Part shown: in pieces, positions 10,174 through 48,184 of the stretch
How positions within the stretch are numbered: position 1 is the first letter of the stretch
How the letters are laid out: each line of letters begins with the position of its first letter
NCBI GenBank assembly: GCA_018817165.1
Contig: JAHITY010000072.1
Location: 49,164-113,163 of the forward strand
From: Candidatus Omnitrophota bacterium
GTDB lineage: Bacteria > Omnitrophota > Gorgyraeia > B26-G9
Direction of reading: 5' to 3'
DNA length: 64,000 nucleotides
Translations under genes and position numbers: made by a program
Notes under the pieces: generated by a model
What the model saw: only the letters and a program-made list of their open reading frames with translations
Told to the model about the DNA's origin: nothing
Database searches by the model: none

Positions 10174-11574
10174 ATGTATAAATTATTTAGCAAGGGGATT
10201 GCTGGTTTAATAGTATTTTGTTTTATAGCCACAATGAATATATCTAGTGTCTTAGCTCAGGATGCTAAAATTGATGAATCTCAAGTCGCCGGTGAATTTT
10301 TCGGAATGCCTGTTTCTGCGGCAAATTACTATTTTGCTAAAAGGGTTGTAATGACATTTGGCGCAAAATGGCGAGGAACGCCTAAAGACGAAGCAGAGCT
10401 GGAAGATCTTGTTTGGCAAGAACTGCTTTTCTCTTATGAGGCATTTAACCGCGGAATTACAGTTTCTGATCAGGAGATTGATGCAGAAATTGAAAAGATT
10501 TTGCAATCCAATAAAGTGGATTTTAGCTTTAGGGTCGATAAAGAAAAATATCAGCAGTGGGTTAAGGATACTTTAGGCGTGCCTTTAGACGCGTTTAGAA
10601 ACCAAATAGAACATTTAGTAAAGCTAGAAAAACTAAGAACTCAGATTATTGATGGGTTTGATCCTGAAGTTACAGAGGCAGATGCTTATGCTAAATTTCT
10701 GAATGAGTATAATACGCTGATGGTGGAGTTAAAAGAGTTTGGAGATATTGAAACAGCTCAAGAGTTTTATGAAAAGTCAGTGGCTCCCATTTCGGAAAAA
10801 GCTGATGATCAATTGATCTGGAATGACTTGATCTATTCTTATGCAGCTAGTTTGCGAAAATTCAAAGCGCAGGATGCGGATGTGGATAAAACAATTGAAA
10901 CATTATTGCGCAATGATGAAGTTAGTTTTAAATGGAAAGAGGAGTCTGATAAGTATCATCAATGGATTAAGGATAAATTTGATATGAATTCAGCTGATTT
11001 TAGAAATCATATGACAAGTTTGACCACTATCGATGATTTTAGCCGTAAGCTATTAGCTAAAGAACAGCCAGAGATTGAAAATAAAACAAAATTTGGTGAT
11101 TTTCTGAAGAAAAATAAAACAGTTTCTATTGCCTATAATTTCTTTTTTGATACATTTGAGTCTGCCGGACCCGATGTGCTAAGATTTGCTTCAGCTAATC
11201 AGGCAAAGAAGTTTTATGCGAAGGCAGGTAGAGTACCGGGGTTTTGGGAAGATGAGAAAAGAAAAGATCCGTCAGCTTTTAAGGTCCCGGGTTTTGTTGC
11301 TTTAGACTTTCTTATCCATATGTGGGGTTTTACCAAAGAAGATGCTTATAAAATGCTAGATGAACAAATAGGGGCATATTATCCTCCATCGCCGATTTAT
11401 AAAGGATATGGAGTTTTTAAAATAAAAAAAATTCGTAAGGCTGATCCAGCAGAATTTGAGAGTAAAAAAGAGGATTATCTAAAAAAAGTAAAGATGATCA
11501 AACAATATGATATGTATCAACAATGGGTAGATGATTATAAGAAAAAAGCAGTGATAAAAGTTTACATTAAATAG
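10174..11574 (+). CDS. Secreted protein with internally duplicated SurA-N-like (chaperone-like) domain; function unknown
   Basis: 466 aa. Signal peptide 'MYKLFSKGIAGLIVFCFIATMNISSVLAQ'. Two homologous segments ('EDLVWQELLFSYEAF...YQQWVKD' and 'DQLIWNDLIYSYAAS...YHQWIKD'). Good RBS 'aagggagggg' upstream. Confidence 0.55.
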   Translation: MYKLFSKGIAGLIVFCFIATMNISSVLAQDAKIDESQVAGEFFGMPVSAANYYFAKRVVMTFGAKWRGTPKDEAELEDLVWQELLFSYEAFNRGITVSDQEIDAEIEKILQSNKVDFSFRVDKEKYQQWVKDTLGVPLDAFRNQIEHLVKLEKLRTQIIDGFDPEVTEADAYAKFLNEYNTLMVELKEFGDIETAQEFYEKSVAPISEKADDQLIWNDLIYSYAASLRKFKAQDADVDKTIETLLRNDEVSFKWKEESDKYHQWIKDKFDMNSADFRNHMTSLTTIDDFSRKLLAKEQPEIENKTKFGDFLKKNKTVSIAYNFFFDTFESAGPDVLRFASANQAKKFYAKAGRVPGFWEDEKRKDPSAFKVPGFVALDFLIHMWGFTKEDAYKMLDEQIGAYYPPSPIYKGYGVFKIKKIRKADPAEFESKKEDYLKKVKMIKQYDMYQQWVDDYKKKAVIKVYIK

Positions 11575-11576
11575 TA

Positions 11577-12059
11577 ATGGAAAATACTGTTCAGCAGGCT
11601 AAAGCAGAGATATATAAGCGAGATATTGCTAAAAAGGGCAAGCTTCAGATTACGGTTATTGGAAATTCAATGTATCCCTTTTTAAAAAATAAAGACATTA
11701 TTTTCCTTAATCCCGCCAAATTAACAGACATTTATGTTGGTGATATTGTTTTAACTTATAATGGAATGAGGATGCTTTGTCATCGGGTTTTTAAAATAAA
11801 TAAAGATAGCTTTCAGACTAAAGCTGATGCCTTGATTGGTCCTGATTTAATAGTTTGTGAAAATGATTTAATCGGAAAAGTTGTTGAAAAAATTAGCCCT
11901 AAAAACAAAAGAAGAGTTAATGTTTTGCCGGCAAAATGGTCGGGATTTTTTATTTCGAGAGTTATGATTATTGGCGCTTTTTTTTATATTCCTGCAAGAC
12001 TGCTAAGAAAAATATGGAGAGCTTTAATCTCTTTTTTATCTTTTCAAAGACAACCTTAA
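11577..12059 (+). CDS. S24/S26-family (signal-peptidase-I-like) serine peptidase, possibly SipW/ER-type Ser-His
   Basis: 160 aa. 'VIGNSMYPFLKNKDIIF' resembles the GDSMxPTL nucleophile box. 'LCHRVFKI' is a candidate His box. 'GDIVL' box and a C-terminal TM helix. Confidence 0.45.
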   Translation: MENTVQQAKAEIYKRDIAKKGKLQITVIGNSMYPFLKNKDIIFLNPAKLTDIYVGDIVLTYNGMRMLCHRVFKINKDSFQTKADALIGPDLIVCENDLIGKVVEKISPKNKRRVNVLPAKWSGFFISRVMIIGAFFYIPARLLRKIWRALISFLSFQRQP

Positions 12060-12062
12060 GAT

Positions 12063-13223
12063 TTGTATAATATGCATAATTATAGAAACGCGATTAATTC
12101 TGAAGCGAGCATAGATAAGCTGATTATCGCTTGTTTGCGCAATTCGGCTGATTGTCAATTGGCGCTAGAAAGCGTGGATTTGCCTCATTTTAACTGGCAG
12201 CTTTTTTTGAAGAAAATTTTCAGTGAGGGGGTTGCTGGATTATTATTTGATAATTTTAGTAAATGGGGCTTGGGAAAGAAATTACCGGATTGGGTCTTAG
12301 CTGAAATAAAACAAAATTATATGCGCAATCTGGGCAGAAATTTATTGATTGCTACTTATTTAGAAAGTGTATTGCAAACTTTCGAGGAAAATCAATTAGA
12401 GGTATTGCTGCTGCGCGGAGCTGATTTTTTAAGCCGATTATACCCGAAGCTGGGCAGCCGGACGATGAGTGATGTTGATTTAGTAATTCATAAAGAAGAT
12501 ATATCCAAAGTTAAGAGTTGTTTGGAAGCTCTTGGCTATCGGCATCCTCAAGGCTATCAATTCCTGTTTGATAACAATGTTTTATTTATAGACCTGCATA
12601 TAGACTATATTGGCTCTTATAAATTAGCGCAGAATTCTTCGTCTCCGACTATAAAAAACCAAGTTATTTGGATGGATGCAATTCCTTTTAAAAGTAATGC
12701 TGTTTATGTTAAGACATTATCAGTTTACGATGCTATTGTCAGTTGTTGCGCCCATTTACAGGAGCATTCATTTTCCAAGCTGATCTGGTTTTATGATATT
12801 CGAAATCTTATAGCTGAAAGCAAAGATGCTTTTGATTGGGATAATTTGATTTTAAAAGCTAGACAGTTTGATTTGGAAAAACCAGTTTTTTATGTGTTAA
12901 GTTACTTGAATATTAATAGGATTTTAAGTGTTCCGGATAAAGTAATGCAGGAACTTCCCTTGCTTAAATTAAATGGTTTGGAAAAGAAATCGCTTAAAAT
13001 GCTATTGAGTTATAGGCGAAGCGATATTTCGGGGGAACTGCTTTATGTTTTTTCTAAAAAAGGATTAATTTCCAAGTTTAAATGTCTATGGCAGTCAATA
13101 TTTATTGATAAAGAGAATTTTCATTTGTCTGTAGAAAAAATAACATTTTGGCATTATCTGAAGCGATTTTTTTCTATGAGCTTGTATGGAATTCGGAAAA
13201 TGTTTAAGCTGATCGTTACTTAA
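12063..13223 (+). CDS. Nucleotidyltransferase-family protein (NTP_transf_5-like) of the HprK-related/PqqD/rSAM cassette
   Basis: 386 aa. 'LLLRGADFLSRLYPKLGSRTMSDVDLVIHKED' is the G-x-D...D-x-D minimal nucleotidyltransferase signature seen in 'uncharacterised nucleotidyltransferase' proteins of RiPP-like clusters. Confidence 0.55.
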   Translation: MYNMHNYRNAINSEASIDKLIIACLRNSADCQLALESVDLPHFNWQLFLKKIFSEGVAGLLFDNFSKWGLGKKLPDWVLAEIKQNYMRNLGRNLLIATYLESVLQTFEENQLEVLLLRGADFLSRLYPKLGSRTMSDVDLVIHKEDISKVKSCLEALGYRHPQGYQFLFDNNVLFIDLHIDYIGSYKLAQNSSSPTIKNQVIWMDAIPFKSNAVYVKTLSVYDAIVSCCAHLQEHSFSKLIWFYDIRNLIAESKDAFDWDNLILKARQFDLEKPVFYVLSYLNINRILSVPDKVMQELPLLKLNGLEKKSLKMLLSYRRSDISGELLYVFSKKGLISKFKCLWQSIFIDKENFHLSVEKITFWHYLKRFFSMSLYGIRKMFKLIVT

Positions 13224-13226
13224 ATA

Positions 13227-14048
13227 ATGAAAAATAGAGAAAGCCAAGTGATGGATTTATTAATTGGCGGTATATATATTAAAATCAAGAGCAATAATTC
13301 TTATTTTTTAAGGAAAACGGCAGATGAGTTTAAGTCATTTGTTTTAGAAAATAAGACAAGTGATTATTTTTTGATTGAAGTGATTGATGATTATATACCT
13401 AAAGAAATTGACGCTATTAGTGTTAAGAGAAAAGATAGTGTTTTTAAAGCCCAGGCGGATGAGTTTATTGCGAGCATTGATCTGGGGAAAAAGATAGCTA
13501 AAGTGCATGTAGCTGATCTGGCAGGGGTTTTTAATTGTTTCCTTAGGGTGTTTTATTCAATTGTCCTATTGGACAATAATGGTTTCTTGGTTCACGCGGC
13601 TGGATTGTCTTTTCAAGGGAAGGGGTATGTGTTTTCCGGAGCTTCAGAAAGCGGCAAAACAACCACTGCAAGAATGGCGCAGGATTGTAAGGTTTTCAGC
13701 GATGAACTGGTTCTTATTAGGCAAATTAACAAACACAATTTTATTTATTCAACGCCGTTTCATGGTGAATTTGAGGGGGATATCTTAAGTGATTGTGTTG
13801 ATTTGGAGGCATTAGCTTTTTTAAGTAAGGATATTCCCCGGGGATACAAGCGATTAAGCAAAATAGAAATATTTACTAGTTTAATGGTAAATATTTTCTT
13901 TTTTTCCTGGGATGATGAATCTAATCAGAAATTGATCAACCTAGTTAGCTGTATAGGTGAAAGTCAAAGTGGTTATAAGGTTGATTTATTTAATTATGAT
14001 ATTAGGAGGGTTATTAATGGAATCAGTAAAAACAATAATTCGCAATAA
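13227..14048 (+). CDS. HPr kinase/phosphorylase C-terminal-domain-like protein (HprK-related kinase)
   Basis: 273 aa. 'VHAAGLSFQGKGYVFSGASESGKTTTA' matches the HprK P-loop region (H-x-x-x-L...G-x-S-G-x-G-K-S/T). Confidence 0.65.
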   Translation: MKNRESQVMDLLIGGIYIKIKSNNSYFLRKTADEFKSFVLENKTSDYFLIEVIDDYIPKEIDAISVKRKDSVFKAQADEFIASIDLGKKIAKVHVADLAGVFNCFLRVFYSIVLLDNNGFLVHAAGLSFQGKGYVFSGASESGKTTTARMAQDCKVFSDELVLIRQINKHNFIYSTPFHGEFEGDILSDCVDLEALAFLSKDIPRGYKRLSKIEIFTSLMVNIFFFSWDDESNQKLINLVSCIGESQSGYKVDLFNYDIRRVINGISKNNNSQ

Positions 14049-14292
14049 TAAAGCAGCGTGGCAGCAAGTAGAGGATAATGTAATTGTTGTTACCAGTCAG
14101 ACAAGAAAAATGCATATTCTCGAAGGAGTTGGTGGCAGGATTTGGCAATTGCTTGAAAATCCTATGAGTAGGAATGAATTAATTGAAAAAATTCAAATAG
14201 AATATGATGCTCCTCCATGGCAAATACAGGAAGATATCGATAATTTTCTAAAAGAATTATCAGAAAAATTAATAATTAAAATAAATGGATAA
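14017..14292 (+). CDS. PqqD-family protein (RiPP recognition element / peptide chaperone)
   Basis: The ORF track starts at 13957, overlapping the HprK-like gene. The in-frame ATG at 14017 gives a ~91-aa protein 'MESVKTIIRNNKAAWQQVEDNVIVVTSQ...HILEGVGGRIWQLLENPMSRNELIEKIQIEYDAPPWQIQEDIDNFLKELSEK', which is the canonical PqqD fold sequence. Confidence 0.75.
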   Translation: MESVKTIIRNNKAAWQQVEDNVIVVTSQTRKMHILEGVGGRIWQLLENPMSRNELIEKIQIEYDAPPWQIQEDIDNFLKELSEKLIIKING

Positions 14293-15322
14293 GCAGATGC
14301 AAACTATTTGGAGCAAAGTTAAAGCGGATTTAAAACAAAAAGCAATCCCGATTGATGTTGTGCTTGAGTTGACTCGGAAATGTAATCTGAGTTGCTGTCA
14401 TTGTTATAATTTTAAAGATAATGCAGAGCTTAGTTTTGTCCAGGTTAAGGATATTGCCAGGCAATTAAGACAGGCAGGAACTTTATTTTTATCATTAACC
14501 GGCGGGGAAATTTTTACAAAAGCGGATATTTTTGAAATCTGTTTTTATTTGCGTCAGAGTTGCTTTGCTCTATCGATATTTACGAATGGAACCTTAATAA
14601 ATCAGAGCAATATCAAGATTATCCGGGAATTAGATCTTAATGAAGTGGGAATCAGCATACAGGGGGCAATAGCAAAAACTCATGACAAGATTGTTGGTTG
14701 TCAGGGGGCTTTTGCTAAATCAATAAACGCGATAAAATTATTGAAAAACGCTCAAATTCCGGTTAATTTAAAATGCACATTAATGCAAGATAACTTTGCG
14801 GAATATCATGATTTGATCAAGCTGGCAAGTGAACTGGGGGTGCCTTATATTATTGACCCGGTTGTTTCGCCAAAAGATGATGGCTCAAAAGATGTTTTAG
14901 CGCATCGCTTAGATGAAAAACAATTGTTTGATTTTTATCAAAATGAGTTACTCGAACAAAATAGTTTTATGCAAAAAAAAGAAGAAGATCCTGATGCTGA
15001 TTTCAGTTGTCCGGCAGGAACGGTTATGGCGAGTATTTCGGCAAAAGGAGATGTTTATCCTTGTATTCAGCTTCCCAAAAAGTTAGGTAATGTGTTTGAT
15101 ACTGATTTTAGAGGAATTTGGGAAAATTCAAAATTTTTAACTGAGCTAAGAGAAAAAACAAATATTCCGGCTTGTCGTAATTGCCGATTAGCGGCTTATT
15201 GCACCAGATGTCCTGGCTTAGCCTATCTTGAAGACGGAAATGCCTTTGGGATATCAAGCATTGCTTGCATTAATGCCGCGGTTTATGAGAAAATAGTAAA
15301 GCAAGAAACCTTAAACAAATGA
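14285..15322 (+). CDS. Radical SAM enzyme with C-terminal SPASM domain (peptide-modifying maturase-like)
   Basis: 345 aa. 'CNLSCCHCYN' (CxxxCxxC), 'SLTGGEIF', and the C-terminal Cys cluster 'CPAGTVMASISAKGDVYPCIQ ... CRNCRLAAYCTRCPG' (SPASM). Confidence 0.85.
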   Translation: MDKQMQTIWSKVKADLKQKAIPIDVVLELTRKCNLSCCHCYNFKDNAELSFVQVKDIARQLRQAGTLFLSLTGGEIFTKADIFEICFYLRQSCFALSIFTNGTLINQSNIKIIRELDLNEVGISIQGAIAKTHDKIVGCQGAFAKSINAIKLLKNAQIPVNLKCTLMQDNFAEYHDLIKLASELGVPYIIDPVVSPKDDGSKDVLAHRLDEKQLFDFYQNELLEQNSFMQKKEEDPDADFSCPAGTVMASISAKGDVYPCIQLPKKLGNVFDTDFRGIWENSKFLTELREKTNIPACRNCRLAAYCTRCPGLAYLEDGNAFGISSIACINAAVYEKIVKQETLNK

Positions 15323-17274
15323 GGATTATGAATAATCGATTGATTAAAAAACTTACGATTCAAATAATTATTATAGTGGTGATTATTGCCGCAGTATTTT
15401 CCTTTCTAATTAGTATGCAGACCAAAGAGCTTAAGTCTCGGATCATTGATAAGGCGGGGTTGTTTTCGTCTATTCTGGGAGCGCATCTAGATAATATAAT
15501 CGAAAATAATTTACGGGCATATGAAGCTTTGCAGCAAAATGTTGTGCAATTAACCAAAGATAATCAGGATATTGAAGAAATCAGTATTATTGCTCAGGAA
15601 AAAGTAGTTATCGCTGCCAGTGATAAAAATCTGATTGGTAAGGTTCCAGAGTTCGCGCATATCGCGATAATTGATGATGTTATTAAAACTAAACGTTCAA
15701 GAGCGATTGTCAGCTCTGAATTGGGGCGGGAGATTGTGATCCATTTCTTACCTTTATTCGCTGCGGATATAAATAAAAATGAGCTGTTGGGAATTATGCA
15801 GATGAAAGCAAAATTTCCTTCGCAAAAGGGCGAGATCGTCACTGCTTTGCGAAAAAATCGAAATGCTTACTATAAAGAAGAGGCTTTGCGTTTTGCGACG
15901 TCTCTTTCCAAATCGCTGGAAATTGTTTTAGGGGAAGTCAAAAGAAACTCGACTTATCTTGATGAATTAATCAGCAATATGTTAAAAGATAAGGAAATCC
16001 GAGATATAAAAATATTTTTAAAAGATTTAGAGTTTTTAATATCAGCAACTAAGGGCAGAGGTAATTTGGCTTTAACAGAGCAAGAAAAATCAATTTTTCT
16101 TAAAGTGATGCAAGATGAAAAAATAATGACCCATACAGTGGGAAAAAAAGAATATTTAACTGAAATTATCAGCCCGCTATATATAAGTTTAGATAATCAG
16201 AAAAAATCGCTGGGCGCGGTGGGAATTGTGATTTCAGCGGAGCAGGTGACTTCTTTGATTCGCATACGGAGAAATTACATTATTTTAATGAGTTTTGTGA
16301 TTATCTGTGCTTTTGTGTTGATAATCGGAATATTTTTTAAGCTGTCGATTATTCGACCGATTCGGGATCTTATAAATATGACTAAAGGGATTGCCCTGGG
16401 AGATTTTTCTAAAAAAGTTATGCTGGCGGCTAATGATGAAATAGGAGATTTAACCAAGGCATTTAATCATATGGCAGATGAACTGTCAAGTTCAAAGCAG
16501 GAAATTGAAGATTGGAATCTGCGGCTGCAAGATAAAATTGAAGCAGTGACCAAGGATCTTAATGCTAAACAGCAAATGCTGATTGAATCAGAAAAAATGG
16601 CTTCTCTGGGCGTTTTATCCGCAGGGATCGCGCATGAAATCAATAATCCCTTGGGGGTTATTTTAGGGCATGCTCAAATGCTGATAAAAGAATTAAAAGA
16701 AAAAAAATCATTAGATAATCCTCAAGAATCAATTCAGATGCTGGAGACAATTGAAAGTTATACTAGGCGCTGTTCATATATTGTAAATAGTTTAATTCAA
16801 TTTGCCAGGGAAAAACAAATGCAGATGATTGATGTGGATGTGAATCAGGCAATAGAAAATGCTTTGATTTTTACGCAGAACCGGATATCGAATAAAAGCA
16901 TTGAAATCGTTAAAACCCTCGAAGAAAATCTGCCAAATATCGCTGCTGATCAGATTCATCTGGAGCAGGTGTTTATTAATATTATTCTGAATGCTGAAGC
17001 AAGCATGCCGCAAGGCGGGAGCCTTAAAATTTCTACTCAGAAAACTAATGCACAAATAAAAGTTTTATTCGAAGATAATGGCCAAGGGATTTCTAAGGAT
17101 GATATGAATCGGATTTTTGAGCCGTTCTTTTCCACCAAAGATCCGGGCAAAGGTTCCGGCTTGGGATTGTCATTAAGTTATGGGATTATCCAGGCGCATG
17201 GAGGGGATATAAAGATCGTCAGTAAAAAAAATAAAGGGACATTGGTTGAAGTTTTATTACCGCTTAAGGGGTAA
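15319..17274 (+). CDS. Sensor histidine kinase (periplasmic sensor domain, TM, HAMP, HisKA, HATPase_c)
   Basis: 651 aa. N-terminal TM, second TM ~aa 320 followed by a HAMP-like segment. H-box 'SAGIAHEINNPLGVILGHAQML'. N/G boxes 'IILNAEASMPQGG', 'FEDNGQGI', 'GSGLGLSLSYGII'. 4-nt overlap with the rSAM gene. Confidence 0.85.
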   Translation: MRIMNNRLIKKLTIQIIIIVVIIAAVFSFLISMQTKELKSRIIDKAGLFSSILGAHLDNIIENNLRAYEALQQNVVQLTKDNQDIEEISIIAQEKVVIAASDKNLIGKVPEFAHIAIIDDVIKTKRSRAIVSSELGREIVIHFLPLFAADINKNELLGIMQMKAKFPSQKGEIVTALRKNRNAYYKEEALRFATSLSKSLEIVLGEVKRNSTYLDELISNMLKDKEIRDIKIFLKDLEFLISATKGRGNLALTEQEKSIFLKVMQDEKIMTHTVGKKEYLTEIISPLYISLDNQKKSLGAVGIVISAEQVTSLIRIRRNYIILMSFVIICAFVLIIGIFFKLSIIRPIRDLINMTKGIALGDFSKKVMLAANDEIGDLTKAFNHMADELSSSKQEIEDWNLRLQDKIEAVTKDLNAKQQMLIESEKMASLGVLSAGIAHEINNPLGVILGHAQMLIKELKEKKSLDNPQESIQMLETIESYTRRCSYIVNSLIQFAREKQMQMIDVDVNQAIENALIFTQNRISNKSIEIVKTLEENLPNIAADQIHLEQVFINIILNAEASMPQGGSLKISTQKTNAQIKVLFEDNGQGISKDDMNRIFEPFFSTKDPGKGSGLGLSLSYGIIQAHGGDIKIVSKKNKGTLVEVLLPLKG

Positions 17275-17283
17275 ATTAGAAAA

Positions 17284-18663
17284 ATGAAAAAAGAACATAT
17301 TCTAGTTGTAGATGATGAACCGGGAATGCGGCAGTTTTTAAATAAACTGTTAAGCGATAATGGTTATAAAATTTCAACAGCGGAAAATGGAAATGATGCA
17401 CTTGATTTAATCGCGAAACAGGTCCCGGATTTGGCAATAATTGATTTTAAAATGCCGGGCATGGATGGATTACAGTTATTAAGCAAGATAAAAGAAAAGT
17501 TTCCCCAAGTAACTGTGATCATGATGACAGCTTATGGCACAATGGAGAACGCTATCCGGGCAATCAAATCAGGAGCATATGATTATCTTTCTAAGCCTTT
17601 TGAGATTGAATCAATATTGTTGGTTATAAATAAGGCTTTAGAGAAAAAACGTTTAGAAGCGGAAAACCTAACCTTACGCCAAGAGCTTAAAAAAACCTAT
17701 ACTTTTTCTGATATTATTTCCGAAAACGCGGCAATGCATAAAATATTTGATCTGATTAAAAAAGTCGCGCCAACTAAAAGTACAGTTTTAATCCAAGGCC
17801 AGACCGGAACAGGCAAAGAACTAGTTGCTCGAGCGATTCATGCTTTAAGTCCCAGGCAGGAAAAGAATTTTGTGCCGGTTGATTGCGCGGCTTTAACGGA
17901 AAGTCTGCTGGAGAGTGAATTGTTTGGCCATGTAAGAGGGGCGTTTACCGGCGCCAGCCAGGATAAAAAGGGCTTGTTTGAAGTTGCGGATGGCGGAACA
18001 ATCTTTCTCGATGAAATTGGGCATATTTCCAAAGAAGTGCAGGCAAAACTTTTAAGAGTATTGCAGGATGGTGATATCAAAAGGGTGGGCGAAGCATTGA
18101 CCAGAACAGTTGATGTGCGATTGATTGCAGCCAGCAATGAAGATATTGAAAAAGCGGTTAAGCAAGGGACTTTTCGGGAAGACCTTTTTTATCGTTTGAA
18201 TGTAGTGCCGGTTTGGATTCCAGCGCTGATGGACAGAGCGGAAGATATTCCGATGCTGGTAGAGCACTTTATTTTAAAATACAATCGGATTGAAGCAAAA
18301 AAAGTCGAGGGCATGACCAGTACTGCTTTAAAAATCTTGATGGAGTATTCTTGGCCTGGTAATGTTCGGGAGTTGGAAAATATTATTCACCGGGCAGTGG
18401 TTATGGCTACAGAGGCTAAGATTGACCTTGCGGATTTGCCGCAGGTTGTAAGAATTGCTCCGACCGCTGACCTAAGAGACAAGTCGCGTACGCTTAATTT
18501 TAAAAAGGCAAAGCAAAGGGCGATAGAGGTTTTTGAACAGAGGTTCTTAACAGAGGCCCTTATGCGGCATGAAGGAAATGTGAGCCGGACAGCTAAAGAG
18601 ATAGGCCTGGACAGAAGGAACCTACACAAAAAATTAAAAAGTTACAAGATAAAATCCCGCTAA
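17284..18663 (+). CDS. Sigma-54-dependent response regulator (NtrC family: REC + AAA+ sigma-54 activator + Fis-type HTH)
   Basis: 459 aa. REC 'ILVVDDEPGMRQFL...DFKMPGMDG'. Walker A 'GQTGTGKELVARAIH'. 'GAFTGA' motif present verbatim ('VRGAFTGAS'). C-terminal 'NVSRTAKEIGLDRRNLHKKLK' HTH. Confidence 0.9.
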   Translation: MKKEHILVVDDEPGMRQFLNKLLSDNGYKISTAENGNDALDLIAKQVPDLAIIDFKMPGMDGLQLLSKIKEKFPQVTVIMMTAYGTMENAIRAIKSGAYDYLSKPFEIESILLVINKALEKKRLEAENLTLRQELKKTYTFSDIISENAAMHKIFDLIKKVAPTKSTVLIQGQTGTGKELVARAIHALSPRQEKNFVPVDCAALTESLLESELFGHVRGAFTGASQDKKGLFEVADGGTIFLDEIGHISKEVQAKLLRVLQDGDIKRVGEALTRTVDVRLIAASNEDIEKAVKQGTFREDLFYRLNVVPVWIPALMDRAEDIPMLVEHFILKYNRIEAKKVEGMTSTALKILMEYSWPGNVRELENIIHRAVVMATEAKIDLADLPQVVRIAPTADLRDKSRTLNFKKAKQRAIEVFEQRFLTEALMRHEGNVSRTAKEIGLDRRNLHKKLKSYKIKSR

Positions 18664-18664
18664 T

Positions 18665-18760
18665 TTCCCCTTTCTTAAAACATAAAAAATACTTAAAAAT
18701 CTCCATAAGTAACAAAACAAGCAATGCTTGAAATGTAATAAATTGTAGTTTAAAATAATA
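18665..18760. repeat. Left copy of a ~90-bp direct repeat flanking the RAYT-like gene; contains the palindrome AAGCAaTGCTT (18719..18729)
   Basis: 'cccctttcttaaaacataaaaaatac...ccataagtaacaaaacaagcaatgcttgaaatgtaataaatt' is matched by 19770..19865. Confidence 0.6.
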
Positions 18761-18779
18761 TGGAGGAAAAGGAGGGAAA

Positions 18780-19631
18780 ATGAGAAAGGTAGAAGGGGTT
18801 CCGCTGGCTAGGGAAAGAATAATCTATCCTAATGCTGTTTATCATATTACGCACCGGGCGCCGGGGCGAGAGATGCTATTCCTCGAAGATAGTGATTATC
18901 TTTACATGCTTTCCTTGTTAAAAAGTATTCCGCAGAAATTTAGCTGGAAGATATTTTCATTTTGCTTGATGCCTAATCATTTGCATTTATTGGTTCGAAT
19001 AAAAGATGTAAATCTTTCGCTGGGAGCAAAATATTTATTTGAAAAATACGCAAAATATCTTAACGCGAAATATTCAAGAAAAGGTCCGGTTTTTTGTAAG
19101 CCTTTTAGGGCGAGTTTATGCTTGAATGATAAATATTTGCTTGCTATTTCTTTGTATATTCATTTGAATCCATTTAAAGCCGGATTAATTATGGAATTGA
19201 GTAAATACAGGTGGAGTTCTTTGAATTTATTTATAGGAAGAATTAGTACTCAAAGTTTTGTTGATTGTGATTTTATCTTAAATATGTTAAACGACAATAC
19301 TGAGAAATCAAAAGAAATATATATTAATTTAATAAACGATGCGATAAATGTCCGGCTAAATGCTATTTCTCAGGATCGCAATGCCTTAAACAATTTTAGG
19401 CTGGAATTTGCTTATTACATGAAATCAAAAAATAAGGTAGATAACGTTGATGAAGACACATTGAAGCTATGTGAGGAAATAGAAAGAAGTAAAAAAAACA
19501 AGCAGTGCACTCATCCGGAAGATGTAGCTGCTCTAAAATATCTAGGGAGCAGCTACTTGCCAACGGCTATACAATTTCAGAAATTGCCAAAATGCTGCAC
19601 AAAAGCCGACAGCTTATTTCCCGCAAATTAA
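18780..19631 (+). CDS. HuH Y1 transposase-like protein (IS200-like / REP-associated tyrosine transposase RAYT family) with C-terminal extension
   Basis: 283 aa. 'YHITHRA', HuH motif 'MPNHLHLLV', catalytic-Tyr region 'YIHLNPFKAGLIMELSKYRWSS' (cf. the Y-x-H-x-NP...GLV...W-SS motif of RayT/IS200 TnpA). Strong RBS 'ggaggaaaaggagggaaaATG'. Confidence 0.7.
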   Translation: MRKVEGVPLARERIIYPNAVYHITHRAPGREMLFLEDSDYLYMLSLLKSIPQKFSWKIFSFCLMPNHLHLLVRIKDVNLSLGAKYLFEKYAKYLNAKYSRKGPVFCKPFRASLCLNDKYLLAISLYIHLNPFKAGLIMELSKYRWSSLNLFIGRISTQSFVDCDFILNMLNDNTEKSKEIYINLINDAINVRLNAISQDRNALNNFRLEFAYYMKSKNKVDNVDEDTLKLCEEIERSKKNKQCTHPEDVAALKYLGSSYLPTAIQFQKLPKCCTKADSLFPAN

Positions 19632-19769
19632 TCAAGTAATCCTGTTTACTGCTAAAAATAATCAAATATAACATAAAGAGCATTGCTTATAATGTTATAT
19701 TTGGCTTGGATAGAGAAATATGGATAAAAAATTAAGGTTTTACCAGATAAATCTTCGCAAGTCTCCCTT

Positions 19770-19865
19770 TTTTAAAACACACAAAATATTATTTAATTTG
19801 GAAGCATTAAAGAGCACTAAAGTATCTATAAGTAACATTATAAGCAATGCTTGAAATGTATATTT
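19770..19865. repeat. Right copy of the ~90-bp direct repeat; palindrome AAGCAaTGCTT at 19842..19852; an inverted partial copy 'gagcattgctta' at 19688..19699
   Basis: 'tctcccttttttaaaacacacaaaatatt...ctataagtaacattataagcaatgcttgaaatgtatatttta' matches 18665..18760. Confidence 0.6.
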
Positions 19866-20021
19866 TATTAGTTGGGAAATGTGTAAAATAGTACTCAGTG
19901 AGGCATTTTGTACGCATTTATTTTAATAAATTTGTGATGGGATAGTATTTATTGAATTATTAGTGTTGTAACACGCTCAAAATAAAGATATTATGAGTAA
20001 GGAGAATTTAATTTTTACAAG

Positions 20022-20050
20022 TTGTCTTGGCATAGCTATTGCTCTATAAT
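20022..20050 (+). promoter_or_regulatory. Candidate promoter of the giant gene: sigma-54 -24/-12 element TGGCAT-N5-TTGCT (20028..20043), overlapping a sigma-70-like TTGTCT-17-TATAAT (20022..20050)
   Basis: 'tTGGCATagctaTTGCTctataat'. GG (20029-30) and GC (20041-42) are separated by exactly 10 nt as in the sigma-54 consensus TGGCAC-N5-TTGCW. An NtrC-type activator gene lies 1.4 kb upstream. Confidence 0.4.
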
Positions 20051-20082
20051 ACTGAATATCTTTATTTTTAAAATTAAGGTGC

Positions 20083-20271
20083 AGTATGTTAAAAAATACG
20101 AAAAGGGAATAGTCTGTTAAGAAAAATGAAAAAATAGTATGCTAAGAAATATGAAAAAGGAATAGTATGCTAAGAAAAATGAAAAAAGAGCAGGATGTTA
20201 AGAAAAATGAAAAAATAGTATGTTAAAAAATACGAAAAGGGAGTAGTATGCTAAGAAATACGAAAAAGGTT
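20083..20271 (+). repeat. Six or seven tandem ~27-bp copies of the giant gene's own RBS/start-codon region (AGTATGYTAARAAAWAYGAAAARGGRAT), creating serial mini-uORFs
   Basis: Units begin at 20083, 20111 (CTG instead of ATG), 20136, 20164 (extended), 20217 and 20245 (the real start at 20248). uORFs: MLKNTKRE*, MLRNMKKE*, MLRKMKKEQDVKKNEKIVC*, MLKNTKRE*. Each ATG is preceded by 'aagggaat/aaaggaat' (SD-like). Confidence 0.8.
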
Positions 20272-23200
20272 AATAATATAGATTTTCCTAATAATCTGTT
20301 AAAATTTTGCTTAACTTTTTTGTTTTTTATTGGACCTTTAATTATCTTTACATCTTTTGCGCAAGCTGATGTGCCTGTGTTTATGGCTTATTCGCAAGCA
20401 AGTGCTACCAGTGGAGGCACTATTAATGTTACTAAGCCTTCTGGGACTGTACAGGGTGATTTACTTATTGCCAGTTATGTATCTGATGACATATATACCT
20501 TAACCGCGCCCTCAGGTTGGACGCTTATTCAAGGCGGATATTCAAATCCGGTTGATAATACGCCAAGTTTTGGTGTCTGGTATAAGATCGCCGATGCTTC
20601 AGAACCGACCAGCTATACATTTTCTTCAGGGGGAAACGATGACCAATATGTAGCGATTCTCAGATATCAAGGCCATGATCCGGCAGCGCCGATAAATAAT
20701 TCGGCAATTGCTTATTCCACTGGCAGCAATGCTCCTACAGCACCTTCAATAAATACTACGAGGGAAGAGTGTGTTATTTTACGGGTGTTTGGGGCTGATG
20801 ATGATGATACTCCGTATAATGTTCCGGCTGGATATTCGGAGCGCTATAATGGGAAAAGTACTGCCAGTAATAGTTCCTGCGGAGGTGCAGGCGCTGATAC
20901 TACACAGGCTTTGCCCGGGGCAACTGGGACCGCTGCTTTTTCGATGAATGCTATTGAAGAGTGGATGGCTGTAACTATTGCAATAGCTCCGCCGCCAAAG
21001 CCAAATGTAAATATCACAGTCACCCCTAACCAGACAAAGGCTCAGAACAGCGGCGGTTTGGAGTTTAAACTTGTTTTTGATCAGGTGATGAATACTTCAA
21101 TAGCGCCGGTGGTAAGTTATGACCCGGCAGGAGTACTCGGAGCCCAGTCGTGTACTGGAGGAACATGGTCAACTACGACACTGACAAATGATACATACAA
21201 AGTTTACAATGACAATCCGATAACTGATTCTACTGGTGATGGCACAGCCACGATAAGCGTGAGTGCAGCTAAAAGCGCAGCAGGGGCAATAATGAACCCT
21301 GATACGAATGACACTTTTCTTATTGATGCGACTGTTCCTATTAATCCTACACAGCCTTGCAGCGCATGGAATTCTAGCAGTAAAATAAATTCGATAGCCA
21401 ATGATACTTGGCAGGAAGCAGATAATACGCCTTATTTTGAATGGTCAGGCGCAACAGATACTGGCGGCACAGGAGTCAACGGTTATTCGGTTTATTGGGG
21501 AAATGACGCGTACGGTGAACCAGCATTAATCCAAGAACAGTCGGCCAGCAATTATAATGTTTCCTCAGGAACGGCAGATGGGGTTTATTATCTAAGAGTT
21601 AGAACTTTTGATATTATTGGTAATTACAGTCAGTCGGTAACTTTGTTTACTTTTCGCTATGATGCCGGTGTTCCTTTAAATCCGGATATTCCCTGTGCTG
21701 CTTGGCAATCAAATCTAAAAGTAAATCCCATCAGTAATAATACATGGCAGCAAGCTGATGATACGCCTTATTTTGAATGGACCGGTGCTAATGACAGCGG
21801 AGGTTCAGGAATAAGCGGCTATTCAGTTTATTGGGGTACTGATATTAATGGAGCACCAGGAGTAAGTCAAGAACAGGGCAATGCTGATTATGAGATCAGT
21901 ACTCCGACGGGTGATGGGACCTATTATTTAAGGATAAGAACTTTTGATAATCTTAATCATTATAGCGCGCCAATTACTTTATTTACATTTCGATATGACG
22001 CAACTGCTCCTTTGAATCCCACAGTTCCGTGTAATGCCTGGGATTCTTCATCTAAGAATACAGTGATTTCTGATAATACTGCTCAAGGGATTGATTCAAG
22101 TCCTTATTTTGAATGGTCTGGAGCAGATGACGGCAGCGGTCAAGGCGTCAGCGGATATTCAGTTTACTGGGGTATTGACCCAGAGGGCGAGCCGGCAACA
22201 GCACAGGAACAATCAGCGGCAAATTATAATATTGTTTCCGCGGTAAGTGAAGGTACTTATTATTTACGCATAAGGACATTTGATGCTTTGGGACATTACA
22301 GTGATGCTGTAACATTATTTACGTTTATTCTTGATCAAACAAAACCCACGGTCAGCGTGGGTGTTTTGCCTGATCCCTCTGGGCACAGAGCTCCCGGGGA
22401 ATTAGGGTTTACTTTACTTTTTTCTGAATCCATGGATATGGGTACAGATCCAATTGTAAGTTATGATCCTAGCGGAGCAACCGGAGTACAGAACGCAAGT
22501 CTTAATGGGGCTTGGTCAACAACAAATAATCCTAATGATACTTATACTGTTTACAATAGCAATGCGATAAACAGTGCTACCGGAGAAGGCACAGCAACAA
22601 TCTCGATCAGCATGGCAAAAGATATTGCCGGCAATACAATGCTGGCTGACACTAATGATGTTTTCTCGATCAATACAGCGATAGACCATTTTGTAATTGA
22701 GCATGATGGATCAGGATTAATTAATATTCCGGAAACTATAACTATTACCGCGAAAAATATCACTAACTGTACGGTAAATGATTTTACCGGTCAGATAACA
22801 TTAAGTACTTTAAATGAAACAAAACAGATCACCTGGGCTTTGGTCAGCGGCAATGGAACTTTTGTTGATAATGGATTAGGCAATGATTCAGCAACCTATA
22901 CTTTTAATGCCGCTGACAATGGGGTGGTTGTATTGCAGCTTACTTGCAGTGCGGCAAACAACTTGGATATTGAGGCAACGGATGGAACGCATAGTGATGA
23001 TGATACTGAAGGAACCTTGGTTATTTCGACAACGGCTTTAGGCTGGTTTGTGATTGAGCATGATAATGCGGCAGTTGCCGGAGTAAAAGAAGATATAAAA
23101 GTCACAGCCAAAGATACAAATGGCCTGACGAAAACAGATTATGTGGGAACAGTTATTTTAGATACCACGGGAACACCAACAACAATTTCCTGGACGATCA

Positions 23201-26200
23201 GTACTGGACTGGGAACTTTTAGCGAAGGCGGAGCAAGTGTTGATACAGCGCAATACACATTTAATCCCAATGATAATGGTGTGGCTATATTTACTATAAA
23301 GGATACTAAAGCGGAAACTTTGAATATATCGGTTGATGACGCAGGGAAAACTGATAATAATCTTGAGGGTAATCTAGTTATTGCCCCAGGGGCATTGAAT
23401 CATTTTATTGTCAGCCATGATGCTCAAGCCATAGCCGGCATAGCGGACAGTGTGACAATCAGAGCTTATGATATTTATAATAATATTAAAACTGATTATG
23501 TCGGGACAATGACAGTAGATACAAATGGAACAGACAGCGCGATCAGTTGGGCAAAGATCAGCGGTAATGGAATATTTACTGACGGCGGTCCCTCGGCTGA
23601 TACCGCGACCTATGGTTTTGTATCAGCTGACGCGGGGGTAGTTGTTTTAAGTATTACTGATACAAAAAAAGAAACAATTGATATTGATGCCAGTGCTGAG
23701 GGGAAAACAGATACTGATTCTGAGGGGACAATGGTGATCAGTGCCGCGGCAATTGATTATTTTCTGATCAGTCATGATACGGCGGGATCCGCGGGAGTTG
23801 CTGAACAGGTGACTGTTTTGGCAAAAGACAGTTATGGAAATACCAAGACTGATTATACCGGGACAATTACTTTGGATACTAATGGTACGGCAGCAGCAAT
23901 CAGCTGGGCCAAGGCAGTGGGCAATGGAATATTTACGGATAATGGGCCGAGTGTTGATACAGCAACCTATGTTTTTGATTTAACTGACAATGGTATTGCC
24001 GTATTTTCAATAATTGATAGTACCGCTGAATCGATTAATATTTCTGTAAGCGGAGACGCTAAGACAGATAATAATACTGAAGGTAATTTAGTCATCGGGC
24101 CAGCGGTTATCTGGTCATTTCGGGTAACACATGACGGCGCGGGTAATGCTGGGTTAGCGGAAACAGTTACAATTACCGCATTGAACAGTATTGGCCAGAT
24201 AAAAACGGATTATACCGGAACGATTACAATTGATACCAACGGAACAGCTACAGCAATCAGTTGGACTAAATTGATCGGCAATGGGACATTTAATGATGGC
24301 GGTGTGGCTGTTGATACAGCGGTTTATACTTTTTCTGCTTTGGATAATGGTGTGGTAACGCTGGCGATAACGGATAATGCGGTAGAGAGTATTGATATTG
24401 ATGTCAGCGGAAGCGGGAAGACTGATGATGACAGCGAAGGCTTGATGAATATTGATACTGCTTTGCTTGCTTATTTTAGGATAGCGCATGATGGGATTGC
24501 TGTTGCGGGAATAAATGAAAATATTACAATTACCGCCAAAGATACCTTAGGGCAAACTAAGACAGATTATACGGGAACAATATATATAGATACTGACGGC
24601 ACGGCGAATACAATTACCTGGACAAAGATCAGCGGAGCAGGCGGATTTGTCGATGACGGAGCAGCCGCGGATACTTGTGCTTATACATTCAGCGCAGCGG
24701 ATAATGGTGTTGTTGTGCTGGGGATGTCTGATACTTTTACTGAAACAATCAATATCTCAGTATCCGGCAGCGCGTCTGATGATAATACTGAAGGATTATT
24801 ACAGGTTCGTCCCGGAACATTGAGTAAATTTATTATTTCGCATGATAATAATGCGTTTACCGGAATTCCCGAGCATATTACTATAGCAGCTTATGATGGA
24901 TTTAATAATATTAAAACAGATTATACTGGTTCAATCATCGTTGATACCAATGGCACGGCAACAACTATTTCTTGGGCAAAATATCAAGGCGCAGGAACTT
25001 TTGTTGATGGCGGTGCAAGTGTTGATACAGCAACTTATACATACAATTCAGCAGACACGGGAATTGTAACATTGGATATGACTGATATGACTGCTGAGAC
25101 AATAAATATTTCGGTAAGCGGAGGCGGCAGTGTTGATGATAATACTGAAGGCAATCTGGTTATTACTCAGTTTTTACTGGGCAATTGGACTTATAATAAG
25201 GAAGTGACGATTGATCGGACAAAAGTAATGGCTGCTCTGACTGATTTCCCTGTGCTGATAAGTATTGTGGATACAGCTTTGCGGGACAATGCCCGCAGCG
25301 ATGGTTTTGACATTGTGTTTACAGCAAGTGATAAGAATACTAAGTTGGATCATGAAATAGAAAGCTTTGATAAGGCAACCGGGACTTTAGTCGCCTGGGT
25401 AAAAATTCCCAGTCTTTTGGCATCAGCAGACACAAAAATTTATATGTATTACGGAAATCCGGCTGCCAGTGATCAGCAGAATAAAAGCGGAGTATGGGAT
25501 TCATCATACAAAGGAGTATGGCATTTAAATAATGATCCTTCAATAACAGCGCCGCAGGTAAAAGATTCAACTTCTAATAATAATGCGATGACTTCTTACG
25601 GCACAATGACCAATACTGATTTAGTTTACGCGAAAGTCGGCAAAGGAATTGATTTTGACGGCAGTAATGATTACTTTAAAAAAACCAGTCCGGTTGGAGT
25701 GGGAACACCGGGTGATTATACTGTTTCGGCATGGTTTAAATACACTTCTTCTCCGGCAAATTACGGAACGATTTATAATCATAATAATTATTCTCCTCAA
25801 TTTGGTTTTTATAATCAAAGCGTAGCCATGGTTTATCACAGTTCCTTAATTACTTCCAGCGGAACAGCCACGCATAATGATAATCAATGGCATAAGGTTG
25901 ACTATCGCAGAGTAGGGTCAACTGTTTACTTTTATGTTGATGGTGTTTTGCATGGAACCGGCAGTCATACCCGGACATTTCCTACAGCAACATCAGCCTT
26001 GATTGGCTGGTCAAATTACAGCAATGAGTATTGGCTAGGGCAGCTGGATGAAGTGCGCTACTCAACCACAGCGCGTTCTCCGGAATGGATCGCCACAGAA
26101 TATAATAATCAAAATTCACCAGCTACTTTTATAAATGTTGGTTTAGCGGCAACCGCAACAGCAAATCCAGTGATAACGGATACTGTTCCTGTCGGGCAGA

Positions 26201-29200
26201 CAGGTAATTTAATCCTTAATGTTTCGGTTACTAACAATGAAGGAAGCGTTTTAACGATAAACAGCATTACCCTGAATAATGTCGGGACAGCCAGTGATGC
26301 TGAGATAACAGCAGTAAAACTTTACTATGATTCGAATAATTCTTTGGATTATACTCCGGGAGTGGATACACAGGTTGGCAATAGCGGTTTTTCTTCAGGC
26401 ACTAAGATGTTTTCCGGATTTAATATAAATATTTCGGCGGGAGCAACCCAATATTTATTCGCGGTTGTTGATGTGGCTTCGGCTTGCGCTAGTGGTAAAA
26501 TATTGGATGTCTCTATTCCGATCAATGGGATCACTTTTTCTAATGGTAAGAAACTGGCTAGCGCGGTTTTAAATTCCAATGGGACAAGACAGACATATAT
26601 AGGTTTGAATCATTTTGTGATTAATCATGATGGCGCGGCGATTGCCGGCTTAGATGAACATATTACGATTACAGCTAAAGATGCTTATGGTAATACTAAA
26701 ACAGACTATACCGGGACAATAACTGTTGATACTGATGGTACCGCGGAATCAATCTCCTGGTCAAAATACGCAGGTAACGGAGTGTTTACTGACGGAGGTT
26801 CAAGCCTTGATACGGCGACATATACTTTCGCGCTATCAGATGGAGGAGTTGTAGTTTTAAATATCAGCAATCAGATCGCTCAGACAATCAATATCTCGGT
26901 AAACGGTGACGCTAAGAGTGATGATAATACAGAACCTGATCTTAGTTTTTCCGCGGGGTTGGTGGATAAATTTATTCTAAATCATGATCAGGCGGCGATT
27001 GCCGGGCAAGGAGAAACAATTACGATTATTGTGAAAGATAGTTTTGGCAATACAGTGACTAATTATTCCGGACAGATAACTTTGGGAACAGATGGTTCGG
27101 CTGCGGATATTAGCTGGACACTTAATTCCGGTTCAGGCATATTTTTGAATAATGGAGCTGGTGCCGGCACGGCAATGTATACTTTTGATCCGAGTGATTC
27201 CGGAACAGCGAGCTTTGAAATAATGGATAATAAAGCAGAGACAATAAATATTATCGCGGTTGGGGATGGAAAATATGATGATAATAGTGAAGGAGCGCTT
27301 GTTGTGGCGCCTGGAGAATTACACCATTTTGTGATCAGTCATGATCAATCTGCTAATGCCGGCAGCGCGGAAGTGATTTCCATAACAGCTTTAGACAGTT
27401 TAAATAATATAAAAACTAATTATACCGGAACAGTTACTTTGGATACAACAGGGACAGCGACAAAAATTACTTGGGCGCTTAATGCGGGTAATGGAATTTT
27501 TATTGACGGCGGAGGATCATTAGATACGGCGACATATACGTTTAATGCTTTGGATAATGGGATAGCGGTATTTAATTTAACTGATACAAAAGCAGAAATA
27601 ATTAATATTTCAGTTGTTGCCGGCAGTATTACTGATAATGATACTGAGGGCAATATGATTGTTGGACCCGGAGAAATAGATTATTTTCTGATCAGTCATG
27701 ATAGAATAGCGACAACTGATGTTTCAGAGCAAATAATGATCACAGCTTATGATGCTTTTGCGAATATTAAAAATGATTATACCGGGACAATAGGATTAGA
27801 TACCACGGGAACGGTTACGACAATCACCTGGACATTGATCAGCGGTGAAGGGATATTTAATGACTCAGGCCCTTCAGATGATACTGCCAGCTATACTTTT
27901 ACCGCGGATGATTCAGGAGTGGTTATTGTAAGCATTATTAATTATACAGCGGAATCAGTAAATATATCGGTTACAGGAGATGGTAAAACAGATAATAATC
28001 TTGAAGGAAATCTAGTATTTGTTTCTTCCGGGATCGATCATTTTTTAATTGTTCATGATAATAACGCGATTGCCGGTATCGCGGAAAGTATTTCAATTTA
28101 TGCTAAAAACGCTAATGGCGATACCTTGACCAGTTACGGCGGGCAAATTACGATTGATACAACCGGAACCCCCGGAACAATCAGCTGGGCATTACAATCA
28201 GGTACCGGGGATTTTACTGATTCCGGTGCTGCTGATGATACTTGTTCTTATATATATGATGATGCTGATTTGGGTGTAGTTGTTTTGACTATGATTGATT
28301 CTACGGAAGAAACAATAAATATTTCAGTTTTCGGTGAAGCTAAAACAGATAATAATACAGAAGGAAATTTAGTGATTAATCCCGCAGGGCTGCATCATTT
28401 TTCAATCACCCATGATAATAACGCAATTGCTGGAATCGGGGAAACAGTAACTATTCAGGCAAAGGACGCGAATAATAATACTTTAAATACTTATGCCGGA
28501 CAAATTAATCTGGATACAACTGGGACAGCAACAACAGTTACTTGGGCAAAAATTTCCGGTAATGGCAGTTTTAGTGATGGGGGAGCTTTGGTTGATACAG
28601 CAACATATTCGTATGTTGCCGGAGACAGCGGGACTTGTGTTTTGAGTATTACAGATACTAAAGTAGAATCCTTAAACATATCAGTAGCTGGCGGGGGGAA
28701 AACTGACGATGATAAAGAAGGCTTATTAACAATTGGGGCAGGAGCGATTGATCATTTTACAATCAGTCATGATGGAATCGCGGTTGCCGGGGTCGCGGAT
28801 AATGTAACGATAACGGCTTATGATGCTTATGGTAATATTAAGACTAATTATACAGGTCAAATTACTTTGGATACTAATGGTACCGCGACAACAATAACCT
28901 GGGCCAAAGCTGCGGGACTGGGAACTTTTATTGAAGGCGGAGCAGCAGTGGATACAGCGACATATACATTTTTAGCTGCGGATAATGGGCAATGCATACT
29001 TAAAATAACTGATACAAAATCAGAAAGTCTGAATATTTCTGTTATCGGAGATGGAAAAAGTGACAATGATTCAGAAGGTAATTTAATTGTCAGTCCAACC
29101 AGTTTACAGTATTTTATGGTCAGTCATGATACTAATGCTGAGGCGGGAGTAGCGGAAAATATAACAATCACAGCCTATGATCTATATTCAAATATCAAAG

Positions 29201-44737: not shown

Positions 44738-44739
44738 GT

Positions 44740-45264: not shown

Positions 45265-45265
45265 A

Positions 45266-48055: not shown

Positions 48056-48096
48056 AATTGTTAAATTTAGCGACTTTTGATATTAAACCCAATAAA

Positions 48097-48125: not shown

Positions 48126-48184
48126 GAACTTGTTGAGTTTTAAATTTATAAACTTGCACATGGTGTCCTGTAATAACGCGGCCA

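Follow-up and report, generated by a model that had tools for sequence, protein, structure and literature searches.

A sigma-54-type promoter, a candidate enhancer island and a hairpin-bracketed Y1 transposase-like cassette upstream of an Omnitrophota giant gene

Results

Genes of the locus

We analysed a 64,000-nt stretch of contig JAHITY010000072.1 from a Candidatus Omnitrophota bacterium (the window; coordinates refer to it unless a locus number, L, is given) and, within it, the region that separates the gene of a sigma-54 activator from a giant gene. The forward strand carries, in this order, a sensor histidine kinase gene (15319–17274; HAMP, HisKA and HATPase_c domains in Pfam), a gene for an NtrC-type sigma-54 enhancer-binding response regulator (17284–18663), a Y1 (HUH) tyrosine-transposase-like gene of the RAYT/TIRYT type (18780–19639; Pfam Y1_Tnp, E = 2.7e-9) and a giant open reading frame (ORF) of 6,130 aa (20248–38640), the product of which has an N-terminal signal-peptide-like sequence, DUF2341 and Laminin_G_3 domains and a C-terminal beta-propeller. 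An earlier note on this DNA had treated 18664–20247 as a single intergenic region, which in fact holds a 283-aa Y1_Tnp ORF (18780–19631).

The regulator combines REC, AAA+ and Fis-type HTH_8 domains in Pfam (PF00072, PF00158 with E = 6e-71, and PF02954), with GAFTGA at residue 219, the domain set of a bacterial enhancer-binding protein (bEBP). Its NCBIfam matches are AtoC/NtrC-like and all fall below the equivalog cut-offs; thus, it is not AtoC, NtrC or ZraR itself. For comparison we used eight orthologous loci from Omnitrophota and the Planctomycetes–Verrucomicrobia–Chlamydiae (PVC) group: the window, L007, L002 (same genome as L088), L213, L090, L086, L211 and L212. All share the order kinase, regulator, promoter, giant gene, with a homologous giant gene after the promoter and regulators 61–92% identical to that of the window; the kinase is syntenic in L007, L086, L088, L090, L211 and L212. 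A scan of GTDB genomes with an alignment of the Y1 protein yielded 80 loci.

The -24/-12 element is conserved in all orthologous loci

A pattern match to a sigma-54 -24/-12 element, TGGCATagctaTTGCT (= TGGCATAGCTATTGCT), lies at 20028–20043 on the forward strand. Its GG-N10-GC spacing is correct, and 205 nt separate it from the giant-gene ATG at 20248; the transcription start predicted from it falls near 20053–20055. The 128 kb of strand that were scanned contain no other exact match, and no second sigma-54 site was found in the window. The pattern is not significant alone, since one match in the window compares with 0.33 expected and 30 of 100 shuffles contained at least one.

Across species the picture is sharper. 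A TGGCAY-N5-KTGCW site occurs once, and only once, in each of the eight loci, on the plus strand (TGGCATagctaTTGCT in the window, TGGCACattaaTTGCT in L007, TGGCATgtttaGTGCT in L002, TGGCACaatgaTTGCT in L213, TGGCACgttgaTTGCT in L090, TGGCATgattaTTGCT in L086, TGGCATgatatTTGCT in L211 and TGGCATataaaTTGCA in L212), and the C of its -12 GC lies 13–206 nt before the giant-gene ATG. These sites make up 8 of the 12 matches in 3.88 Mb, that is, in all the DNA fetched, over which motif counts across loci were taken. In the upstream alignment, the promoter spacer and flanks differ between orthologues while the -24/-12 element is invariant. The significance of the promoter, like that of the hairpins described below, comes from cross-species conservation and not from window statistics. 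We regard a sigma-54 promoter in front of the giant gene as strongly supported, and established as far as comparative sequence analysis reaches. The earlier note had proposed just such a two-component sigma-54 system beside a sigma-54-type promoter of the giant gene; it placed the end of the GAFTGA-bearing activator gene (18663) and the TGGCAT-N5-TTGCT element (20028–20043, 205 nt before the giant ORF) where direct reading finds them, and both the gene order and the promoter are kept in the eight loci.

Could the giant gene be driven by a sigma-70 promoter instead, with the sigma-54 match being fortuitous? A TTGTCT-17-TATAAT sequence at 20022–20050 overlaps the sigma-54 element and matches at 10 of 12 positions, its TATAAT being perfect, and the earlier note had suggested dual control on this ground. 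The hexamers are indeed present, but sites of this kind are no more frequent in this AT-rich region than chance predicts (9 seen, 8.9 expected) and, in contrast to the invariant -24/-12 element, those at 20022–20050 are conserved in no orthologue. With neither enrichment nor conservation, we rejected the site as a chance match; dual control is not supported, and transcription from this site in place of the sigma-54 element seems extremely improbable.

A conserved inverted-repeat island at a fixed distance from the promoter

The upstream alignment has only one other conserved block, where its invariant columns cluster. This is an inverted-repeat island (TGTGTAAAATAGTACTCAGTGAGGCATTTTGTACGCA; 19880–19916, forward strand), present in all eight loci, with its centre some 155 nt before the predicted start. 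Its 37-nt consensus, tGTGTAaAAtAnTaCaCAaTGaGGCntaTTTTACaCA, comprises two adjacent imperfect dyads, TGTGTA-N6-TACACA followed by TGAGGC-N6-TACACA, giving the motif string TGTGTA-N6-TACACA-CArTGAGG-N8-TACACA. The first base of the central motif is 128–133 nt from the -24 GG in every locus; what lies between island and -24 differs freely in sequence from locus to locus, and so does the spacing to the gene upstream. Elsewhere in the window, a search for TGTGTA-N6-TACACA with up to two mismatches returned only two chance-level matches.

L211 offers a natural rearrangement of the region: a SecA-like gene is inserted and the island is duplicated (central motifs at 11438 and 16507), and one copy keeps its distance to the giant-gene promoter. 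The inserted gene there (L211 11396–16695) encodes a 1,604-aa SecA_DEAD-domain protein, and a sigma-54 element follows only the island copy before the giant gene. The regulators of L211 and L212 carry H-to-Q and L-to-C changes in the recognition helix, and their island half-sites contain CG, a weak hint that half-sites and recognition helix co-vary. From the constant spacing and conservation we infer that the regulator binds the island, which is probably its real enhancer, or upstream activating sequence (UAS).

The island might instead act as an RNA or single-stranded DNA (ssDNA) stem-loop, be it a stabiliser of the regulator mRNA 3' end, a target of the Y1 protein or a relic of its hairpins, with the true activator sites elsewhere or unneeded. 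Its arms do co-vary symmetrically (TGTGTAAAA/TTTTACACA versus TGCGCAAAA/TTTTGCGCA in L211), they look like hairpin feet, and the island begins 3 nt past the regulator stop in L213. Against this reading, it is the distance to -24 that is fixed (128–133 nt), whereas the distance to the upstream gene ranges from 3 to about 400 nt or more, and of the duplicated L211 island one copy stayed with the giant-gene promoter. Moreover, CArTGAGG is conserved in sequence and not just in pairing, and the predicted fold is weak (-5.1 kcal/mol, z = -2.1). We therefore consider a stem-loop function unlikely and keep the enhancer as the preferred reading of the island.

Most orthologues share a third element, weakly conserved (TGTAAC/ATAAC ... 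GTTAT; 19967–19978, alignment columns ~132–160), some 60 nt before the -24 GG. It could serve DNA bending or be a site of the IHF type, and its GTAACA motif is reminiscent of the feet of the hairpins.

The palindromes are tips of hairpins that bracket the Y1 gene

The 11-mer AAGCAATGCTT occurs at 18719–18729 and 19842–19852, both as the earlier note had given them; a third, inverted copy, GAGCATTGCTT, is at 19678–19688, about ten bases away from the 19688–19699 given there. With at most one mismatch the palindrome has nine matches in the window, against 3.5 expected. These 11-mers are only the tips of longer hairpins of about 30–40 nt. Hairpin c1 (GTAACAaaaCAAGCAaTGCTTGaaaTGTAA; 18709–18738, plus strand) lies 42 nt upstream of the Y1 start and is conserved in L007 (7930–7960) and L088. 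Hairpin c2 (19663–19703, plus strand), with 20-nt arms, CAAATATAACATAAAGAGCA t TGCTTATAATGTTATATTTG, lies just past the Y1 stop, is inverted relative to c1 and is conserved in L002 and L007. Hairpin c3 occupies 19832–19861. Folded as ssDNA, they reach -3.9 (c1), -9.2 (c2; z = -3.9) and -4.2 kcal/mol (c3).

Why three hairpins around one gene? A diverged direct repeat of about 140 nt (18604–18740 versus 19700–19862) consists of the last ~60 nt of the activator gene and its downstream flank, with c1 in one copy and c3 in the other. The segment at 19700–19862 (plus strand) is thus a duplicate of the activator 3' end that terminates in c3, with a remnant at 19726–19761 and 76% identity; duplication of the activator 3' end together with its hairpin accounts for the third palindrome. 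The downstream copy (19700–19862) is closer than the upstream one to the true post-regulator flank of L088. L007 is arranged in the order of the window, with just c1 and c2 of the three hairpins. All three are present in the L002/L088 genome, where the assembly is interrupted between c1 and Y1. In each of the four assemblies of the L002-type genome the interruption falls about 50–165 nt upstream of Y1 (L002 1–164; L088 11500–11646), and the L088 regulator contig ends about 250 nt past the regulator stop, in unrelated sequence; a multicopy insertion sequence (IS) is probably inserted there between c1 and Y1.

The bracket is not peculiar to this control region. Y1 homologues lie between two near-identical palindromes in L009–L013, L015, L016, L021–L023, L025 and L027, with one palindrome 30–60 nt before the Y1 start and the other 1–30 nt past the stop, and the palindrome sequence is lineage-specific (for example, AGTTACAAAACAGTTGACAACTGTTTTGTAACT in L015 and CTTTACACTTTTGTCCGGGACAAAAGTGTAAAGTTAG in L027). 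Altogether, Y1 is bracketed in the window, L007, L002, L086 and L212 and in at least 12 distant loci. By tblastn, no activator homologue was found within 8 kb of Y1 in L008–L029, and the two further close non-syntenic Y1 homologues sit in glycosyltransferase and housekeeping loci; we therefore rejected Y1 as a constant partner of the activator. Since the same bracket surrounds Y1 in loci that lack the activator, the hairpins appear to travel with the Y1 gene.

The orthologous loci make the converse case. L213, L090 and L211, with regulators 82%, 69% and 69% identical, respectively, have neither Y1 nor the hairpins and retain both promoter and island. In L212 a distantly related Y1 (43% identity) occupies the same position, and its hairpins are different ones, with an AAGTCaGACTT core. 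In L086 the cassette is placed between the kinase and regulator genes instead (8994–9036, 9054–9938); the kinase stop codon falls within its upstream hairpin, which has a perfect 16-bp stem (-16 kcal/mol), and a solitary third hairpin stands past the regulator, 4 nt before the island. The regulator HTH (helix-turn-helix) is highly conserved across lineages with wholly different hairpins.

The earlier note had read the palindromes as UAS sites, bound by the HTH of the NtrC-type regulator and acting by looping from 180–1300 nt away. Several facts made this reading attractive: the three closest species share the palindromes, all five loci with a cassette have a copy at an enhancer-like distance before -24 (about 155–170 nt in four of them, about 275 nt in L002), and L086 keeps its solitary copy between regulator gene and promoter. 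Yet they are missing from three loci that keep regulator and promoter (L213, L090 and L211), they are replaced in L212 by a wholly different core despite the conserved regulator HTH, and the same brackets enclose Y1 genes in at least 14 loci devoid of the activator. In addition, half-sites only 6–7 bp apart centre to centre would be ill-suited to a Fis-type HTH dimer. As a whole, the comparison indicates that the palindromes are tips of Y1-cassette hairpins and not enhancer sites of the activator, and we give the UAS proposal very little credence.

A metagenome scan with the hairpin core AGCAWTGCTTRWAATGT gave at least 120 matches, none of them in a hairpin context among the matches listed, and these were only chance matches; Rfam matched no family on 18500–20500 at E values up to 1. 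In L009, one extra hairpin copy lies 3.3 kb away. In L090, a segment of about 300 nt in the spacer between regulator and giant gene is flanked by imperfect inverted repeats (AGTAGCGAGTAGCAAGAAGAGAGTAGAGAG ...; 11398–11428 and about 11720–11765) and looks like an insertion of a miniature inverted-repeat transposable element (MITE).

The Y1 gene of the window is frameshifted

The 283-aa Y1 ORF ends at 19631, and a Fis-like HTH (GYTISEIAKMLHKSRQLISRKLIK) runs on in another frame to a stop at 19637–19639. Alignment with the intact orthologue P0002 (85% identical) places the frameshift after 'KYLG'. The G run at 19542–19552 reads G3 in the window and G4 in L002 and L007, and it is because of this 1-nt deletion that the ORF stops at 19631. 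An independent Logan assembly (L001) is identical across the region, including the G-run change, which could be a true pseudogene mutation, a phase-variable run or a shared read error.

Database homologues are 'transposases' of about 285–300 aa in metagenome-assembled genomes of Omnitrophota and Elusimicrobiota, with a C-terminal HTH of the HTH_23/HTH_28/HTH_7 type that is Fis-like and has PF02954 matches. The HLH motif (H67, H69) and Y126 in YIHLNP are invariant across the family alignment. The best NCBIfam model is NF047646 (RAYT), covered from 3 to 146 of its 146 positions at 62 bits, below its 80-bit cut-off. An IS200/IS605 TnpA insertion sequence was considered and dismissed: the IS200 model NF033573 gives only 16 bits against a 55-bit cut-off, and most protein clusters occur on a single contig.

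A sigma-70-like sequence, TTGAAA-17-TAAAAT (18728–18756, plus strand), may drive the Y1 gene; by eye, the same hexamers and spacing recur in L007 and L088, and the -35 hexamer lies inside the 3' arm of hairpin c1. A second Y1_Tnp ORF, at 62739–63902 (plus strand; 387 aa, Pfam E = 2.2e-12), probably belongs to a different Y1 subfamily; flanking hairpins were not found around it.

Does the cassette control the giant gene? A transposase-derived cassette could have been co-opted together with its hairpins: the Y1-HTH protein might bind the hairpin beside the enhancer, or the hairpins might insulate against, or terminate, read-through that comes from the regulator and Y1 genes. Five of the eight lineages have a cassette in this control region, drawn from three different Y1 lineages, and in all but one of the five a hairpin adjoins the island. 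The C-terminal HTH of Y1 is Fis-like (PF02954 in homologues), the same class as the DNA-binding domain of the regulator, and c1 overlaps the -35 of the conserved, putative sigma-70-like promoter of Y1. But three lineages dispense with the cassette, the Y1 copy of the window has lost its HTH through the frameshift, and the Y1 family occurs mostly in unrelated contexts. The hairpins were also considered as intrinsic terminators and rejected: being AT-rich and without a T tract they would terminate poorly, and the one match to the terminator pattern among them is a 5-pair stem on the minus strand at c1. Co-option thus appears quite unlikely.

In a neighbour-joining tree the Y1 proteins of the orthologous loci are polyphyletic, falling into three separate clades, which suggests separate arrivals. 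A bolder version holds that hairpin-bracketed Y1-HTH cassettes, from at least three lineages and at two positions, home repeatedly to the enhancer-proximal spacer, where they may switch the giant gene via the HTH or via ssDNA hairpin processing. Were it true, a domesticated tyrosine transposase would be wired into a sigma-54 enhancer; we regard this as a long shot. Our preferred view remains that the cassette is, or was, a mobile element lying in the control region, its mobility being suggested by the comparisons above.

A model for the control region

How would these elements work together? The giant gene would be transcribed from the -24/-12 promoter at 20028–20043. The most likely activators of this promoter are the histidine kinase and NtrC-type regulator encoded beside it, a link suggested by their conserved adjacency. 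With the activator bound at the island (19880–19916), looping of the DNA would bring it into contact with the sigma-54 holoenzyme. The stretch from the activator gene to this proposed enhancer holds what is best described as a Y1-HTH cassette of the REPtron/TIRtron type with its hairpins; the copy in the window would be decaying or rearranged, having lost its HTH by the 1-nt deletion and seen a ~140-nt segment duplicated. For this reading as a whole (sigma-54 promoter, Y1-cassette hairpins and island enhancer) we estimate a probability of roughly three in four.

Several observations weigh against it. (i) No rpoN gene was found among the scanned ORFs of the window. (ii) In L002 (1419–1446) just 13 nt separate the -12 GC from the annotated ATG of the giant gene, and in L090 (11950–11984) just 20 nt, so that either the mRNAs are leaderless or nearly so or the start codons are mis-called. 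(iii) The island arms (TGTGTAA/TTACACA) resemble the feet of some Y1 hairpins, which means that the island could be a Y1-related or structural element. (iv) Of the five loci with a cassette, all but L002 (about 130 nt) have a hairpin within 4–20 nt of the island, and this hairpin may have a secondary regulatory role. (v) The 64-kb window contains no hairpin copies away from Y1, and such dispersal is the hallmark of true repetitive extragenic palindromes (REPs). (vi) The Y1 tree is a neighbour-joining tree without support values.

Leader and neighbouring genes

Between promoter and giant gene, a tandem 5' leader (20083–20266, plus strand) consists of 6.8 copies of a 27–28-nt unit that comprises the ribosome-binding site, the start codon and the first ~7 codons of the giant gene. 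The array yields five short upstream ORFs (MLKNTKRE*, MLRNMKKE*, MLRKMKKEQDVKKNEKIVC*, MLRKMKK* and MLKNTKRE*) and could affect translation or be slippage-prone. It occurs only in the window; the other seven loci lack it and have -12-to-ATG distances of 13–67 nt.

Before the kinase gene lies a co-directional gene set (10174–15322), kept in the five loci with upstream flank (L007, L086, L088, L090 and L211). It encodes a SurA_N-like protein, Peptidase_S24, NTP_transf_5, a ScmC-like protein, PqqD and a radical SAM/SPASM enzyme, and looks like a maturation cluster for ribosomally synthesized and post-translationally modified peptides (RiPPs). Downstream of the giant gene, 42342–54081 carries genes for a secretin, PilM/N/O-like proteins, GspE and GspF homologues and pseudopilins, resembling type II secretion or type IV pilus systems, in agreement with published loci of the type II secretion kind that adjoin Omnitrophota giant genes.

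Discussion

Omnitrophota giant genes have been discussed as adhesion or predation factors tied to type II secretion-like systems. A text search of preprints on these genes returned no mention of sigma-54, of response regulators as regulatory proteins or of promoters. The conserved kinase, activator, island and -24/-12 element in eight lineages provide a testable hypothesis for how one giant-gene family may be switched on, the first concrete proposal on the regulation of such a family in Omnitrophota. The locus also carries a caution, in that a palindrome close to a bEBP gene may be part of a RAYT/TIRYT-type cassette and not a site of the regulator. The consistent hairpin-gene-hairpin layout, shared by Omnitrophota and Elusimicrobiota, enlarges the set of examples for a branch of Y1 transposases that is poorly characterised.

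How does the system compare with known ones? Like systems of the NtrC/AtoC/ZraR class, it pairs a REC-AAA+(GAFTGA)-HTH_8 regulator with an adjacent HAMP/HisKA kinase, a TGGCAY-N5-TTGCW promoter and a dyad element about 130 nt upstream of -24, within the known range of enhancers; the NtrC sites at glnAp2, for instance, lie near -140 and -108. It differs in its target, the gene of a 6,130-aa secreted protein, in the transposase cassette between regulator gene and enhancer, and in the island sequence, since TGTGTA-N6-TACACA ... is not a known UAS consensus.

The cassette shares with RAYTs and TIRYTs, the properties of which have been surveyed (PMC5581495), a Y1 HUH protein for which RAYT is the best profile (62 bits, below the 80-bit cut-off) and protein clusters that mostly occupy one contig each. 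Y1 homologues also have the C-terminal HTH of TnpA_REP subclass 2.1.2 (PMC6006769), and inverted or self-complementary repeats enclose the gene, as in TIRtrons (PMC3733652). A bracket that travels with Y1 agrees with the REPtron/TIRtron concept, and also with TnpA_REP subclass 2.1, which has a C-terminal HTH (PMC3733652, PMC6006769). Unlike the GGGGWSAS-type terminal inverted repeats (TIRs) or GTAG REPs of those families, the repeats here are near-perfect palindromes of about 30–40 nt with TTACA...TGTAA feet. By text search, the RAYT/TIRYT surveys (PMC5581495, PMC6006769 and PMC3733652) do not cover Omnitrophota or Elusimicrobiota.

IS200/IS605 TnpA elements have in common with the cassette HUH and Y1 chemistry and a small gene with hairpins at both ends. 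However, the protein here is about twice as long, has an HTH and scores 16 bits against the 55-bit cut-off of the IS200 model, and the two hairpins are mutually inverted instead of sharing one orientation; multicopy behaviour was not seen. Taken together, the locus is a known kind of regulatory architecture into which a known kind of mobile or domesticated element has been inserted.

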